From Candidatus Altimarinota bacterium (lineage in GTDB: Bacteria > Patescibacteriota > Gracilibacteria > BD1-5 > UBA2023), in assembly GCA_031423995.1 (NCBI GenBank), contig JANPGO010000060.1, forward strand, positions 1 through 43,047: 43,047 bases of DNA, in the 5' to 3' direction. The notes beneath the pieces were generated by a model, which saw only the letters and a list, made by a program, of their open reading frames with translations, had not been told where the DNA came from and did not search any database. Shown here one piece after another: positions 1-41,770 of this stretch. A program made the position numbers and the translations under genes. Positions within the stretch are counted from its first letter, which is position 1, and every line of letters starts with the position of its first letter.

Positions 1-54
1 TGGAAACAACATATGAGAATTATATCTGAAAGTCATAAAACAATAAAAAGGAAA

Positions 55-82
55 TTGCGTTTTCTCACTTTTTCCCTATGAT
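55..82 (+). promoter_or_regulatory. sigma70-like promoter of lepA, probably giving a leaderless mRNA
   Basis: TTGCGT(55-60)-16 nt-TATGAT(77-82); ATG at 89 is 6 nt downstream; no Shine-Dalgarno motif. Confidence 0.55.
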
Positions 83-88
83 GCGCGC

Positions 89-2146
89 ATGAACGCACCA
101 AAATCTATCAGAAATTTCTGTATCATTGCTCATATCGATCACGGGAAATCCACCCTCGCCGATCGCCTCATGGAGATCACAGGAACGCTCGAAAAGCGGG
201 AGATCCAGTCTCAGACGCTCGATCAGATGGATCTCGAACGAGAACGAGGAATCACGATCAAGCTCACCCCAGTCCGTATGGAATGGAAGTGAATCGAACT
301 CAATCTCATCGACACCCCGGGGCACGTCGATTTCCAATATGAAGTCTCTCGATCCCTCGCATCAGTTGAGTGAGCGATCCTCGTCGTCGATGCGACACAA
401 GGTATTGAGGCCCAGACCCTCTCGAATGTCTACCTCGCGATGGAGAATGATCTCACGATCATCCCAGTATTGAATAAGATCGACCTCCCCTCAGCCGATG
501 TCGAACGCGTGAGTGAAGAGGTGATGAATCTCCTCGGATGCAAGCGGGAAGATATCATTCCCGTATCAGCAAAAACAGGGATGAATGTCGAAACGATCCT
601 CGATGAAGTGATCCGACTCATTCCTGAACCGAAAAAACTCGATAATCAGTCGAACTTTGTACCAGTAAGCCCCCCTGAGAAGGGGGGGAGTCCGACTATT
701 TCTGTGGAGGACGGGGGGGTTGGCTTCTGAACGTCAGAGCAAACCCCTCCTCACCTCCCCTTATCAGGGGAGGATTGAGACAAAAAAACAGTGAAGTGAC
801 TCATCTTCGATTCTCAATACGATCCCTACAAATGAGTCGTCGTCTATCTCAAACTCTTCTCTGGACAGATAAAAAAATGAGACAAGCTCGAATTCATCAA
901 TACTGGCGCTCGAATCGAAGCCCTCGAAGTCGGATGTTTTCGTCCGAAATATTCCCCAACCAATGTCCTCTATGAAGGGGAAATTGGGTATGTCGTGACA
1001 GGATTGAAGTCTATCGTCGAGGCTCGTGTTGGTGATACAATATTTGCTGGGAATCCTGAAGCCAAGTATGCCATCAAGGGATTCAAGAAGATCACCCCCT
1101 ATATCTATGCAGGGATATTTCCTGTCGAGACCGATGAATACCCGAAGATGAAGGATGCCATGGAAAAACTCATGCTCAATGACTCCTCCCTCGTTGCAGA
1201 ACATGAAGCCTCTCCAGCACTCGGATATGGATTTCGCTGTGGATTCCTCGGACTGCTCCATCTCGATATCGTGAAGGAACGTCTCTGGCGAGAGCACGAT
1301 ATGGATGTCATCATCACGAGTCCTCAGGTTACCTACAAGGTACTCGTAAATGGGAACAAAGTAGCAGAATACCCTCGTGCAGCAGGGGAACTCGTGCACC
1401 TCATCCCTAACCCTTCTCCTAAAGGAGAAGGGAATGAGAAGCTGACATACCTCCCCCTCTCTGAAGGAGAGGGGGTTGGGGGGTGAGGTATATGTACGTA
1501 TCTCTCGATATCGAATCCGGAAGATCTCCCGAAACCTGGAACCTATATCCATATCGAAGAACCGATTGCCAAGGTCGAGATGATCACCCCGAATGAATAC
1601 ATCGGAAATCTCATGAACCTCGCTCAAGAGCGACGATGAGTATTCAAAAATCAGACCTACCTCGATGCGAATCGTGTCATCCTCCACTATGAGATCCCGA
1701 TGAGTGAACTCGTGGGCGATTATTATGATGACCTGAAGAGTCTCTCCAGTGGATATGCGAGCCTCCACTATGAGCCGATCCGTTTCCAGGAGGATGATAT
1801 CGTGAAGATGGATATCCGTGTGGCAGGCGATATTGTGGATGCCTTCTCCATGATGGCACATCGAGCACGGACTCGCTACCTCGGTGGGCGAATATGTGAG
1901 AAATTGAAGGAGAATATCCCGAAAGCACAGTTCGCGATCGCGATCCAGGCTGTAGTGGGCAATGATGTCGTCGCTCGTGAAGATATATCTGCTCTGCGCA
2001 AGGATGTGACTGCGAAGCTCTATGGAGGGGATATCACGCGCAAACGCAAACTCCTCGAGAAACAGAAAGAAGGAAAGAAGAAGATGAAACAATTCGGACG
2101 AGTCTCGATCCCAAGTGAGACGTTCGTAAATATACTGAAGAAGTAG
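89..2146 (+). CDS. lepA: Elongation factor 4 (LepA), 685 aa with two repeat-derived insertions
   Basis: [72 protein letters not shown]; fragments 89, 440, 995 and 1700 share one frame joined by TGA=Gly. Confidence 0.98.
670..773. repeat. Palindromic MITE-like element (family B), in frame in lepA
   Basis: CCCCTGAGAAGGGGGGG(672-688) is the near-perfect inverse of CCTCCCCTTATCAGGGG(754-770); each end is a hairpin; internal hairpin 713-750. Confidence 0.85.
1398..1489. repeat. Palindromic MITE-like element (family C), in frame in lepA
   Basis: ACCTCATCCCTAACCCTTCTCC...GGAGAGGGGGTTGGGGGGTGAGGT inverted ends; hairpins 1411-1432 and 1453-1475. Confidence 0.88.
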
Positions 2147-2150
2147 CTCC

Positions 2151-2498
2151 ATGCTCTCTACCTATAAAAAATCGCATCTCGAGAAGATTATCGCTCTCTA
2201 TATCGCTGAAAATCCGAAAATAGTGACTTTTTGTTTTGGGAAAAAGAGACCTATATTTCTCTCGAAATATTTGGAAGTCAATAGAGATCGTACAGATGGC
2301 ACGAGAAGGCTCCGATTTTTCGACGCTGCTATACGGTATCTGAAGAATGCTCAGCCTAAAGATGTATCCTCATATAGTTCCACGGAGTTCGAGATTATCT
2401 GAATTACGAGATCTGGAGAAAAATTCGCCATGCATATCCGAGAAGAATCGATCCAAAAGGACAAAAAACTCTTCCTCATATCTACTTTCGAAAAATAA
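2151..2498 (+). CDS. Small basic hypothetical protein (115 aa), possibly a RelE/BECR-like nuclease toxin
   Basis: ORF continues through TGA at 2400 to TAA 2496-2498; C-terminal beta-rich pattern FEIIGITRSGEKFAMHIREE...KLFLISTF; fold is inference only. Confidence 0.6.
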
Positions 2499-2634
2499 AA
2501 AAAACGAGAGACTATCTCGCATATAGCGGATTCTCCTCTCGTTCACTTCCTATTATATACCTCCGACTACACTGAAGCAGTACTTATTGCACGGAGACTC
2601 CAAACAGAGAAATGGTTCATGACGAACTTATGAG
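2497..2634 (-). ncRNA. Candidate ~135-nt sRNA convergent on the 2151-2498 ORF
   Basis: Minus-strand TTGCAT(2665-2660)-16 nt-TATACT(2643-2638); stems GACTC/GAGTC and CTCCG/CGGAG; terminator AACGAGAG/CTCTCGTT followed by a U run. Confidence 0.45.
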
Positions 2635-2682
2635 TCCAGTATATATCATACTATGAGAAATGCAAATTTTTTAGCAAAAAGA

Positions 2683-2726
2683 TCTCGATTCCTTCAGAAA
2701 CATTCGTGAATATACTGAAGAAGTAA
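2683..2726 (+). repeat. Duplicate of the lepA 3' end (att-like direct repeat of 2103-2146)
   Basis: Encodes [13 protein letters not shown] exactly as lepA does, with only synonymous differences. Confidence 0.9.
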
Positions 2727-2746
2727 CTATCTATAATAGAACAACT

Positions 2747-3992
2747 CTATTTAGCAGTTGATTTAGCATATAATTGATTAAACATTCTCCTTATAGCAAG
2801 GAAGTCATCAGTACTTATTCATCATACTAATTTTCTCATAGTTAATCATTCGAAACGAATCTGTAAGAGTCAAATAGTTTTTGTGAGTCAGTCAATTTTA
2901 CCTTCTAATCCGTCTATAGTAGCTGCACTCATGGTTCATCGCTCTGTTAAAGTAGTAATTTCTCCATTTTTATCAGATATTTCTCGTTGCAAATCAGTAT
3001 TTGCTCAACTCATACGTGCAATCTCTGCTTGCATCTGAGCTATTGTTGCCTGTGCAGCTTGTAAATTTGCATTTTTTGTACCAATTACCTGATCCTGATC
3101 TGATAGTTCTCATTGGAGCCTACCAACTCTTTCTAAGGCACGTGTGGTAGCATTACGAGCATTGGCAACGGCAGCAATTGTTCAATTTCACCTATACCGT
3201 GGCTCGCTATTTGTATCTATTTGTTTCGTCATTTTCTGACTGTTTTGAAGCGTGAACTGAAGAGTGAGTGTACCATCAGGTAACAAGACATGATTCTCGA
3301 GAGTATCGAAATCTGGAATATCACCAACTCGTGCATCATTCCTATAGACTCACGTAGGTCCGTCTTTCATACTCATTGTATAGAATACTGTATTATTTAC
3401 GGTAATTCAGAGCATTTCTAGTCTTCTATCTTCGATATCTCATGGAGTTTGTATTTTTTGTTGGTTCTGCAGACTTATCAATAGGTTGAGTATATATCTC
3501 TCCGTTGTCGATAAATGCCACTGTATGTTCATTGGTGACATGATCACGAACATCCTTCGTAACGTCGAATGTTCGTCTGTCAAGCTCACCATCCTTATCT
3601 ACAGATAGTGTATGAGGGTTGACGACTATACCCTTTGAGGTTTTTACGATGACTCTCTCTGGATAAAATACGATACTATTTCAAGCGGTATCCCATATTT
3701 GTGGAACTACTTTTCCATTTATCATCAATCGTGTTTCAGAATCTAGATTTGCATTGTAATTATATCCTAAGGTATATTCTCATATTCTGACAACCGTATC
3801 AGGACCTTGTCTACTATATTCTCTATCATTAACATAATTAGCGAGCTCTAATACTGACACTGAACGGCCTATTTCAGGTACACCTTCAATTTTATTTCCG
3901 AAATCAAATGTTTCAAGATCCGTTACTGTATATGGTAATGGCGTTGATTTCATTGCTGCATCTTGAGCATCACTATGTGCTAAGGTTGTCAT
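2747..3992 (-). pseudogene. ~414-aa hypothetical protein with C-terminal coiled coil, split by one +1 frameshift
   Basis: Frame from ATG 3992 stops at 3426; removing one base of the T6 run at 3454-3459 gives an open frame to TAG 2747-2749; heptad-like NLQAAQATIAQMQAEIARM segment. Confidence 0.65.
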
Positions 3993-4142
3993 AGTAAGTA
4001 AGGTAATATGATAAAATCATGTATATGATACAATAATATTAGATAATTTGCAAGTTAATTTCATTTTTTATCGTACAATATATTTCTCTTTTTCTGTTGC
4101 AGGAAATATGAAATCAGATATAGTCTATGACCAGAAAATAGT

Positions 4143-5003
4143 ATGCTCTCTTCATTCCTCGGCTACATCATCGAAATACTCGGACGTGAGTGGATATTTC
4201 TCACGATTCTCTGTGTTGCGATCCTTATCGAACTCATGACCAAGAAGGTGAAGAAAAAACTGAAGAGTAAGATATTTGTCTACTCTGAAGATGCAGAGAA
4301 TATGCATGACCGAGAATACTACCTGGAGTATTATAAAAAAATTCAGGGAATTGACATCATCCGCTCATTCTCCTTCACGATCGCACTCTCCCTGATCCTC
4401 GTCGGGAAAGCAGGACTCAATATCAACTTCTTCGCCCTCGCAGCAGGTGCACTCATTGTGATATTCAAGGATCTCTGGATCTCGATTGCGGCATTTTTTA
4501 TCGTCGTACCGCAGTACAGAATCGGTGATACGATCTCGATCGATGGGATTCAGGGACAGATCATCTTCATTCGAGTATTCTCAGTGGGTATTCTCGGGAA
4601 GGATACCAATGGGGAAAGTACCTGACAACTCTATATGGTGCCCAATTTCAAATTCCTCTCCGAAAATATCCGCAAGGAGCAGATCGGAAGCGATGAGATC
4701 ATGCGAGATTTCTTTCAGATTCCCTACAAGAAAGAATGGTTCAATACAGAATTCGATACCTTCATGGAAGAACTGAAGAAATACCTCGACACGATATTCC
4801 CGATGGGAAGCCGAAAAAATATCGGAAACTATCAGTCCTATATCGGTTACAGGTACAAGCTCGACTATGAATACCGGGAAGACAAGTGTCTCATGATCCA
4901 ACTGTCATTCGTCGGAAAACCTGATCGCAATCACCGAAATATGGAGAAAATAATTACTTTTATCGAAGGACAAAAAGGTAAAAAAGAGAACATCGAAGAA
5001 TAG
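4143..5003 (+). CDS. MscS-family mechanosensitive channel protein
   Basis: N-terminal TM segments, then YRIGDTISIDGIQGQIIFIRVFS...GQLYMVPN, which is the MscS beta-domain pattern; one TGA at 4623. Confidence 0.8.
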
Positions 5004-29402: not shown

Positions 29403-29771
29403 CTGTCATTCCTGCGTATGCAGGAATCCAGGGTATTATTGGGTTATTTCGTTGAATAAATCATTCCATTCAGGATTATTTGCTTCTATTTTATTGAGTT
29501 TATATTCTCGTTTCCATTTTTTCATCCTCTTTTCAGTAGTAATTGCATCATATATATTCTGAAAAGATTCATACCATACAAGTATATTCACGTTATATCT
29601 TTTTGTAAATCATTCATTCAATTTCTCTTTATGTTCTAGTATTCTCCGAATCAAGTTATCTGTCACTCCGATATAGAGTGTTCCATTTCTCTGACTTGCG
29701 AGTATGTACACATAGTATGTATTCATAGGAATGCGTTAATGACTGGATTCCTGCATACGCAGGAATGACAG
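29403..29771. mobile_element. Minimal GIY-YIG element bounded by perfect 29-bp inverted repeats
   Basis: CTGTCATTCCTGCGTATGCAGGAATCCAG(29403-29431) and its exact reverse complement (29743-29771); each copy is itself a hairpin. Confidence 0.8.
29436..29726 (-). CDS. Small GIY-YIG nuclease (96 aa)
   Basis: [30 protein letters not shown]...GFTKRY...[17 protein letters not shown]...NPEWNDL; missing from the ORF track because of one TGA. Confidence 0.93.
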
Positions 29772-37347: not shown

Positions 37348-37648
37348 TGTCATTTCGAACAAAATTTTAGGGTAAATTTTCGTGAGAAATCTTCCTTCTA
37401 ATGTTTCATAAATATGTCTGAAGAGATGTACATCTACATTCTTACGAACCACTCTCACAATACCTTCTATACTGTTGTCACGAACAATCTCAAAAGAAGA
37501 ATCCTTGAGCATCGACAAAAACTACCGTCGAGAAAAGAAAATTTATCTCATAGAATCGATAAATCTATTTTGGAAAGATCTTTCTGAAAATTGGTACAAT
37601 TAAAAGGAAGATTTTTCCTTCTCACTTCGCATAGAAGTCGAAATAACT
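37348..37648 (+). pseudogene. Decayed family A GIY-YIG element (nuclease remnant 37414-37603)
   Basis: MYIYILTNHSHNTFYTVVTNNLKRRILEHRQK, then an internal deletion/frameshift to RREKKIYLIESINLFWKDL; flanked by TGTCATTTCGA..GAAATCTTCCTT and AAGGAAGATTT..TCGAAATAAC. Confidence 0.85.
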
Positions 37649-40335: not shown

Positions 40336-40528
40336 GATGACATATAAACTTTTGGCCTAATCCTTGTCACTCCTTTAAAATTTCATATTTTGTATATTCT
40401 TTATACTCTTTTTCAAAAAAAGATATACAAAAATCCAATAAAAAAAAATCCCCTTCACGTTCCGTTGGCTTGAAAAGATTTTTGCATTTTATCGAAACGA
40501 GATATAATCAGTACATAATTTCAAGAAT

Positions 40529-40729: not shown

Positions 40730-41116
40730 ATGTTCATTATTGACTCAAGTATTTTTTGTGCATGCTTCTTAGATGAGGATACGAACCATGAAAGGGCGAA
40801 AGTACTCTTGTGAGAAATCGAGGAACGGATATTGGTTCCATATATCGTCTTGAGTGAGGTGCTGACTGTATTGACCTATAAACATTCGAAAGATCGTGCA
40901 AATGAATTTGCAGATTTTATACTCTCAGATAATCGATTCATTTTGATAGATGCAGACATGACGAGTGAGGTATATTTCTGGAAATCGATCGATAATAATC
41001 TCTCCTATATCGATATTGTCCTGACCTATGTTGCCCTTCGAAACGATGCCACTCTCCTCACCTTTGACGATGCAATGATAAAGTTCTATCAAAAAATCCG
41101 AGAAAATAAATCGTAA
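40730..41116 (+). CDS. PIN-domain (VapC-like) ribonuclease toxin
   Basis: MFIIDSS...DTNHERA, VLSEV, LSYID, LLTFD acidic PIN motifs; 128 aa. Confidence 0.88.
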
Positions 41117-41195
41117 AAAAATCCCTTTCACGATACGTTGGCTTGAAAAGTTATTATAAGAATAACTGTATTATATCTGCTTACCAATTACAATC

Positions 41196-41477
41196 ATGCA
41201 CTTACAAGATTCACAAATACTCATTCTATTTTTTGTATTCCACATTATTCTTTTTAGTAGTTTTTCTGTCCTAAAACTCAATATTCTTACTTGGAGAATC
41301 ATAACGATTATTCTTGTTTTAGTAGAACCGTACCTCATTCTCTGGCTGATGGGATGATGAGGTCCAGATAATATCTGAGCATGAATCTGAATTATGATTT
41401 TATATATTGTAGTCTGATTTCCGATTTATATACTTTCAGGAATAGTCTATCTCATCTGAAAGCAGCTTCAAAAATAA
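41196..41477 (+). CDS. Small three-TM membrane protein (93 aa)
   Basis: Open with UGA=Gly; stop codon abuts the third repeat. Confidence 0.65.
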
Positions 41478-41770
41478 AAAAATCCCCTTCACGTTTCGTT
41501 GGCTTGAAAAGATTTTTTAGCCTGTGAGGGGATTTTTAATTCATACCTTTTCTTCACGTTGGTATGAGACGAGGTCTACTGCACTTAGGTTAGTTTTACG
41601 AGGATAACCAGCTTTTGTATTGATTTGATATTCCTTTATGGAAGATCGGTTTGTATAGAAAGCATAGTGCTTTGTATGTGTATTTATTTTTTTCTGGAAC
41701 TTCGATCGGTTTAAGCGACCAAATCTCAGAAGGCGGCGAGTGAAGTTCACCAGTGCTCGTGAAGTAGACA
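41476..41770 (-). ncRNA. Candidate structured ncRNA (~295 nt); alternatively an 84-aa basic ORF at 41517-41771
   Basis: TTGACA(41804-41799)-17 nt-TAAGAT(41781-41776) promoter; nested long-range stems; terminal hairpin 41478-41537 followed by a U run. Confidence 0.4.

Follow-up and report, generated by a model that had tools for sequence, protein, structure and literature searches.

Islets that are bounded by a duplicated gene tail and contain no integrase are usually classed as decayed integrative elements. A displaced tail with silent differences can also be left, with no integrase involved, by homology-facilitated illegitimate recombination with 3'-end displacement, in which the native end of a gene gives way to an imported one. 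In integron arrays, short and apparently promoterless cassettes, which often carry toxin-antitoxin (TA) genes, are read from upstream and are separated by a repeated recombination site. The current study concerns a 580-bp islet at the 3' end of lepA (elongation factor 4) in contig JANPGO010000060.1 of Candidatus Altimarinota bacterium, a stretch of 43,047 nt that was analysed as a whole and is called the window (all coordinates are window positions). The islet contains an open reading frame (ORF) of 115 codons, ORF115, and a convergent structured small RNA (sRNA), and is bounded by two copies of the lepA tail, here named A and B. The genome holding the window is referred to as G000; G001, G003 and G004 are genomes of the same genus, and the family survey covered 89 genomes. 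The 580-bp unit is a horizontally exchanged cassette without a recombinase gene, set in a pad of two lepA-tail copies.

Two groups of described elements come close to this arrangement. Cis-mobilizable elements (CIMEs), for example the ICESt1-related elements at the 3' end of fda in Streptococcus thermophilus, have no integrase or transfer genes, and their tandem accretion has been documented (PMC5704250, in the part of that source used here). The lepA islet resembles them in its 3'-end direct repeats, its intact target gene and its lack of integration and transfer genes, and in G001 an array is found whose units are separated by tail copies. Unlike CIMEs, the islet was not found to have a related integrase-bearing element of the same site specificity (in a genome 87% complete, where absence is unproven). 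Its units are also far smaller (0.5-1.3 kb, one module), four target genes have unrelated repeats, and the tracts do not fit a single fixed crossover.

The minimal mobile elements (MMEs) of Neisseria are whole-gene cassettes without mobility genes, variable at a fixed site, and are thought to spread by transformation and homologous recombination (PMC3787668, in the excerpt relied on here). The islet shares with them a variable content at one site without mobility genes (the ORF115 module in G000 and G003, two TA cassettes in G001, none in G004), and both RecA and ComEC are present. Unlike the MMEs, which according to the same excerpt have two conserved flanking genes as arms, its downstream flank is not conserved, and the 44-nt tail apparently replaces the second arm. 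The islet also differs from the product of a single homology-facilitated illegitimate event in having a common boundary with different cargo in G001, tandem tails, and a displaced tail whose polymorphisms are silent only. With integron arrays the likeness is one of form only, as there is no IntI, attI or attC-type site and the repeat is a piece of coding sequence.

In the G000 genome TGA is read as glycine, and lepA (89..2146, forward strand) is intact, with 685 aa, only under code 25; translation with table 11 splits it into pieces. The nine in-frame TGA codons coincide with glycine in relatives, and the domains are full-length (Pfam GTP_EFTU, 2.7e-58; LepA_C, 9.6e-43). A repeat search paired positions 2103-2148 with 2683-2728 as a direct repeat of 46 nt (80% identity, spacing 580), confirming the original prediction that the last 44 bp of lepA recur 580 bp downstream. 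Tail A (2103..2146, forward strand), the upstream copy, is the functional end of lepA and comprises its last 13 codons and the stop, while tail B (2683..2726, forward strand) is the displaced copy at the right boundary of the islet. Aligned at the stop codon with which they end, the two 44-nt tails agree at 35 bases and differ at 9. The differences fall in seven codons (Ile ATC/ATT, Pro CCA/CCT, Ser AGT/TCA, Glu GAG/GAA, Thr ACG/ACA, Val GTA/GTG and stop TAG/TAA); all nine are silent, and the two tails encode an identical peptide, in agreement with the predicted synonymous change of seven codons including the stop. Among 200,000 simulated sets of nine random substitutions, none was entirely silent. 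A 17-mer common to both tails has exactly two copies in the window, where 0.02 would be expected, and two copies were seen in none of 100 shuffles.

With tail A, LepA stays whole; tail B, the displaced copy, delimits the islet distally. The original prediction had further stated that both tails appear to have been selected as a LepA C-terminus, which was supported and is strengthened by three silent differences between G000 and G003 in tail B, and that one 115-aa ORF and a convergent unit, with no recombinase, lie between the tails, which proved to be the case. Neither tail could be assigned to a donor genus, its identities to 29 other tails being too alike. A diversity-generating retroelement was also considered and was rejected, as the differences between the tails are not adenine-specific and the islet has no reverse transcriptase.

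All 41 genomes of the first survey have lepA. Among 30 lepA loci, two tails within the first flanks were present only in the window and in G003, and the tail-pattern survey of the 89 genomes detected more than one tail per contig only in G000 (two), G003 (two) and G001 (three). G003 has the islet as in the window and is collinear with it over 42-4101. In G004 the lepA site is empty, with one tail followed directly by a hairpin and T-run, and a single tail is likewise found in every other genus examined. G001 contains two tandem cassettes at lepA, each closed by a tail copy. The first gave matches to DUF4258 (1.1e-8) and DUF2283 (1.3e-7), and the second, which has relatives at non-lepA loci in two other genomes, gave weak Phd-like and HigB-like matches. 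All the tail copies start at the same base, at a Ser codon, and have a common left boundary. In the third tail of G001 one nucleotide has been inserted, and over its final 34 nt it does not differ from the functional G001 tail. The region 3' of the tails is not conserved among G000, G001, G003 and G004; G003 departs from the window beyond 4.1 kb, and the sequence in a further run, X6, differs too. The result named at the outset as speaking against a mobile unit was one arrangement common to all relatives, with neither an empty site nor varied cargo; instead, G004 was found to be empty and G001 to have other cargo.

The last 95-100 nt after the third tail of G001 (L041 3762-3860, the end of G001:C219) belong to a multi-copy repeat that also ends three other G001 contigs and occurs in G002; this repeat probably broke the assembly at the end of G001:C219. 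Two perfect tails in G064 were considered as a further duplication and rejected, because they belong to distinct lepA ends on separate contigs (87% identity across 186 nt) and represent bin heterogeneity.

The 536-nt interior (2147-2682) is exactly one ORF115-RNA module with its promoter, and between G000 and G003 it is about ten times less diverged than the flanks. Upstream of the islet, lepA differs at 15 of 203 positions (1900-2102, 7.4%) and tail A at 4 of 44 (9.1%), all in its first 27 nt. Inside, only 3 of 348 positions differ in ORF115 (0.9%) and 3 of 184 in the RNA region (2499-2682, 1.6%). In tail B 3 of 44 positions differ (6.8%), all of them third-position and silent; the chance that three random substitutions there would all be silent is about 0.01. 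Divergence then reaches 12.1% over the next 0.85 kb (102 of 845 positions, 2747-3592) and 24.2% over the following 0.45 kb (109 of 451, 3593-4064). The interior (6/536 differences) is significantly more similar than lepA (19/247; Fisher p = 4e-6), and the same holds for third codon positions, which differ in 17 of 82 lepA codons and in 2 of 116 ORF115 codons (p = 8e-6).

Over 19,999 aligned bases G000 and G003 are 78.6% identical. Among 705 segments of 536 nt taken from this alignment, median identity was 75.6%. The exchange of the islet was recent, since its identity is 98.9% and that of any segment elsewhere in about 20 kb does not exceed 93.3%. In contigs of the independent runs X2 and X4 both haplotypes are contiguous across tails and flanks, which argues against an assembly chimera. 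Run X6 contained a third haplotype contig, a mosaic of G000-like and G003-like alleles that matches the window only to 2725 and then diverges, and another lepA-tail contig that matches the window only to 2145. On the reverse strand of 2747-4064 lie two long ORFs of 281 and 212 aa (coiled-coil; putative secreted protein), which are 12% and 24% diverged from G003. They show no codon-position bias (37:30:35 and 31:38:40), and are either very fast-evolving or non-coding in these frames.

ORF115 (2151..2498, forward strand) has its start codon 4 nt past the lepA stop and contains a single TGA codon. It was assigned to no family in Pfam, NCBIfam or PADLOC, and Pfam gave none for all 15 family members. 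A sequence-profile search of the PDB returned nothing meaningful, and a protein atlas yielded clusters without a name and, at 0.85, a PBECR3 lead below the threshold. The AlphaFold (AF2) model had a pLDDT of 93.5. In an exhaustive VIA-align search with this model, RelE-superfamily toxins ranked on top (Z 5.6-3.3) over residues 31-115, the best being 7vd7_A, a Salmonella TA toxin (Z 5.6), followed by BrnT (5.2), RelE (4.7) and then ParE, HigB, YoeB, YafQ and MqsR. By manual count, 21 of the top 33 rows were toxins of the RelE/ParE/HigB/YoeB/BrnT type, and four more were CdiA-CT RNases. Because the Z values are modest, a RelE-type toxin fold, close to RelE and BrnT, is regarded as likely for the modelled protein rather than proven.

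Homologs of ORF115 are 115-125 aa long, patchily distributed and sometimes multi-copy. A profile search gave a family of 124 cluster representatives, and a scan of a genome collection gave 16 loci, including metagenome-assembled genomes of Nitrospinota, Peribacteria and Scalindua. Within the 89 family genomes, matches were obtained in 24 at E <= 1 and at 12 places in 10 genomes at E <= 1e-10. Residues invariant in the family include R33, Y40, D49, R53, H95, R97 and E98, and there is a C-terminal LISTF motif. No ORF of antitoxin size was found in 2499-2682, nor a conserved neighbouring ORF at the loci of ORF115 homologs, and the search for flanking direct repeats around eight other ORF115 loci gave none that were relevant.

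The space between ORF115 and tail B is occupied by the sRNA (about 135 nt, 2496..2632, reverse strand), which matched its covariance model with 124.5 bits. A promoter scan placed a promoter-like site (-35 TTTGCA, -10 TATACT) at 2638..2666 on the same strand, and directly at the ORF115 stop codon lie a putative terminator stem, in which 2504-2510 pair with 2536-2542, and its U-run. The sRNA gene is convergent and its predicted end is at that stop codon, and an overlap with the 3' untranslated region of a read-through transcript is possible. About 180 nt 3' of ORF115 homologs elsewhere resemble 2499-2640 of the window. The features common to these regions on the minus strand are a TATACT -10 box, a GUGCAAUAAU-like internal loop, and a long terminator stem with a U-run at the ORF stop; the ATATACT box is at the same position in five of nine aligned homologous loci.

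RNAalifold found no structure in the first alignment (A4, nine sequences), whereas a closer subset of eight sequences gave one of 28 pairs, 15 of them with compensatory changes. In a control test 90.3% of cells were paired, against 40-52% with slid partners; double changes were seen in 15 pairs against 2-5 in the slid controls, and the observed score was reached in none of 500 shuffles. The frequent G-U pairs are compatible with the minus strand only. With 15 distinct sequences, 21 of the 28 pairs were compensatory, in an alignment that was fitted to the model and is therefore biased towards the structure. Over the 89 genomes the covariance model gave 11 matches in nine genomes, 10 of which abut the stop codon of an ORF115 homolog in convergent orientation (three of these 10 loci lie outside the training set). 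One match, in G055 (L119, G055:C1:89094-89227; 69 bits), has an ORF for a 159-aa membrane protein in the place of ORF115. Rfam gave no match at E <= 1 over 1900-4300, leaving the sRNA without an Rfam family. The ORF115-RNA pair is absent from Pfam and Rfam, and the covariation support for the RNA is strong. The pair travels jointly in several genera of Gracilibacteria, the protein being found also in other phyla. At three loci (L050, L052 and L062, in G076, in G002 and as the second copy in G003) the module lies directly 5' of a uvrD/pcrA-like helicase gene, and the sRNA promoter region overlaps the helicase start codon.

Tail-duplicating insertions are not restricted to lepA. A self-comparison of G000 yielded 99 short direct-repeat pairs, which were screened for those in which one copy spans the stop codon of an ORF of 150 codons or more and the downstream copy has a conserved in-frame peptide. 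Behind uvrB (C88) a repeat of 65 nt, with copies 528 nt apart, accompanies a GIY-YIG gene (PF01541, 7.5e-14), and behind rplO, the gene for L15 (C84), a repeat of 58 nt, with copies 1330 nt apart, accompanies an AAA/DUF4143 gene (PF13635, 1.6e-42). In the gene for the large subunit of ribonucleotide reductase (C108) the last 14 codons recur 885 nt apart with 100% peptide and 87% nucleotide identity, together with a KilA-N gene (2.5e-24). The repeats of the four target genes have differing lengths and unrelated sequences, with no evident core in common. In the rplO repeat copy, GGA(Gly) replaces TGA(Gly), a change that is silent only under code 25. The uvrB islet is present in G003 and G002 at 79% and 71% identity, and the rplO cargo is found as a deleted remnant in G003 and as a 66%-identical version in G001. 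A further candidate at C84:16349 was dropped, its upstream ORF resembling a shadow frame.

Matches to GIY-YIG (PF01541) number ten in G000; the window contains two, at 29499-29717 (reverse strand) and 37426-37539 (forward strand), and hairpin repeats lie on either side of the copy behind uvrB. Within lepA itself there are two G+C-rich, hairpin-forming insertions (640-800 and 1393-1492) that are translated in frame and interrupt the alignment with every relative. In runs X4 and X6, contigs omit 1393-1493 and have 21 different letters there instead. A similar in-frame insert, which is multi-copy, occurs in uvrB on C88 (about 374-620). Towards the far end of the window, three copies of a roughly 45-nt intergenic repeat (40434-40483, 41114-41158 and 41468-41519) bound small genes, and the gene at 40730-41116 looks PIN/VapC-like by eye. 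These genes may form a further array of small cassettes, delimited by a boundary repeat of its own. ARAGORN detected no tRNA or tmRNA in the window.

No integrase adjoins any of the cassettes. Matches to the tyrosine recombinase family (PF00589) numbered one each in G000, G001 and G003 and three in G004, none of them near lepA. The G000 protein is Xer-like: XerD, XerC and XerA were its best models, each with a score below the respective cut-off. Against the integron-integrase model, which has a cut-off of 265 bits, it scored 114. No serine recombinase was detected in G000; RecA and a ComEC-type channel are present. There are two RecA matches of near-equal score (G000:C36:7655-8446 and G000:C100:3315-4106), which could reflect bin redundancy or a real duplication. 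An autonomous element with the lepA tail was found neither in the 89 family genomes nor in exact-pattern scans of metagenome contigs (four loci, three of them unrelated and one a single-tail lepA) and viral contigs (one contig, unrelated). A full-text literature search for lepA as an integration site returned nothing relevant by title.

We consider it an evenly balanced question whether the cassette moves by homologous recombination with the displaced tail as distal arm. After DNA uptake, RecA-type recombination would bring in and swap cassettes. The left arm would be lepA and the right arm the displaced tail, which is portable and would make insertion independent of the downstream sequence. 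Recombination of the tails with one another and with lepA alleles from outside would keep the displaced tail coding-like, which is proposed as the cause of its silent-only differences. The module would be expressed by read-through from lepA, as the short distance between the lepA stop and the ORF115 start suggests, and the same process may lie behind the insertions at uvrB, rplO and the ribonucleotide reductase gene. The original prediction had offered two mechanisms, a satellite mobilised in trans and homology-assisted recombination. The choice between them is still undecided, and the evidence, namely four unrelated repeats and no integrase, leans to the second. Recombination is favoured over a trans-acting integrase also because no autonomous element was found, because the third haplotype is a mosaic, and because the tails are incompatible with one circle. 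Judging by the tail sequences, the patterns of G000 and G003 cannot both come from one circle with a fixed crossover point, since tail B differs between them at positions 8 and 20 and tail A up to position 26.

Several observations weigh against this proposal. The longest identical run between the two tails is 17 nt, and 44 bases at about 80% identity are a poor substrate for RecA. Contigs of four runs contained no excised, circular or 580-nt-skip junction, although contigs drop rare forms. The common left boundary of the tails in G000 and G001 is the expectation for a defined att site, and at 87% completeness an integrase may be unassembled. An alternative is that the islet is a CIME or minimal satellite, its tails being attL and attR of a site-specific integration at lepA, with an integrase acting in trans from a phage, plasmid or integrative and conjugative element, or with the Xer-like enzyme, and the G001 array formed by tandem accretion. 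Such elements classically leave direct repeats at the 3' end of a gene that is itself restored, independent cassettes have the same left repeat boundary, and tail copies separate the tandem cassettes of G001. Tail A is moreover a hybrid: its 5' end is host-like, its 3' end the same in G000 and G003. In both genomes the stops of A and B differ; CIMEs and their accretion are themselves documented (PMC5704250, in the part cited above). Yet no cassette has an integrase beside it, G000, G001 and G003 have one tyrosine recombinase each (Xer-like in G000) and no serine recombinase was found in G000, and neither the 89 genomes nor the exact-pattern metagenome and viral scans gave an autonomous element with the tail. 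Four targets with unrelated repeats of different length would require several specificities, and the tail B differences at positions 8 and 20 fall where a fixed crossover gives element-derived sequence. A trans-mobilised element is therefore considered possible but rather doubtful. A different objection is that nothing moves any longer. Since G004 is empty at lepA, uvrB and rplO, several of the insertions could be single old events in one sub-lineage, and the uvrB and rplO islets are as diverged in relatives as the host or more. The lepA islet would then be a static scar, left by one old homology-facilitated illegitimate recombination in the ancestor of G000, G003 and G001 and inherited vertically, its low divergence being due to a single allelic conversion or to selection; as we read the tail sequences, the A/B arrangement must predate the recent exchange in both G000 and G003. 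This is improbable given the different cargo at the same pad in G001, the higher similarity of the islet than of any other segment in the roughly 20 kb compared, the third haplotype in another downstream context in run X6, and the silent-only polymorphisms of the displaced tail, which are unexpected for a dead relic.

As for the cargo, we infer from the modelled fold and the linkage of protein and RNA that the ORF115-RNA module is a TA-like selfish or defence unit, with the RNA as putative antidote. Like type II systems of the RelE, ParE and BrnT kinds, it would have a RelE-like fold in a small, patchily distributed gene, but no protein antitoxin is adjacent. The RNA partner is a feature shared with type III, ToxIN-like systems, in which a tandem-repeat RNA lies upstream and is co-transcribed (PMC8860590, PMC5772629 and PMC8309996, in the parts of these sources drawn on); here a single RNA unit lies downstream of the ORF in convergent orientation. 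Type I systems also have an RNA partner, a cis-encoded antisense RNA pairing with the toxin mRNA, but ORF115 is a 115-aa alpha/beta protein and not a small membrane peptide. The cargo fits no definition among type II, type III and classical type I TA. Evidence against a TA role came from the fold search and from the RNA. Foldseek of the ORF115 model against the PDB gave no match at E <= 1e-3, and in VIA-align the best Z is a modest 5.6, where values below 8 may reflect a common arrangement. The predicted pairing of the sRNA with the ORF115 5' region was inconsistent (z +0.95 to -4.87 over six loci, with one start coordinate off), and the sRNA of G055 is an orphan without ORF115.

The module could instead be no TA system at all, ORF115 being an RNA-binding or RNA-processing protein with the RNA as its substrate or regulator, or the RNA being an independent regulatory sRNA with no role in addiction or defence. 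A fold match of only Z 5.6, the lack of any family name for ORF115, the position of its homologs alone between housekeeping genes and often just 5' of a uvrD-like gene, and the persistence of the orphan RNA without the ORF all agree with such a role. We nevertheless regard it as unlikely, since the fold matches show a consistent enrichment in RelE-superfamily toxins, protein and RNA are strictly linked and convergently oriented, the pair is distributed patchily and in multiple copies, and classical TA genes occupy the equivalent site in G001. If the TA reading and the recombination proposal are joined and extended, the module would represent a new TA class, a RelE-fold RNase restrained by a single structured convergent RNA, and the duplicated tail would be a general, enzyme-free portable homology arm for such cassettes behind any conserved gene in the naturally transformable, reduced genomes of Gracilibacteria. 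This combined claim is put forward tentatively, as we doubt that it will hold in full.

Unlike the usual decayed elements, the islets described here number four in one small genome; they lie at core genes, their repeats are unrelated and their cargo is typical of selfish elements, and the recent exchange that could be dated has its end points within the tails. What is new is the cargo pair, the multiplicity in one reduced genome and the dated exchange. The presence of recombination and DNA-uptake genes without a dedicated integrase makes the idea of a portable homology arm directly testable, with four islets and a dated exchange at hand. A RelE-fold toxin with an RNA antidote would, if true, extend the known TA types. 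The insertions at lepA and at three other core genes suggest that these tiny genomes acquire selfish genes without an integrase.

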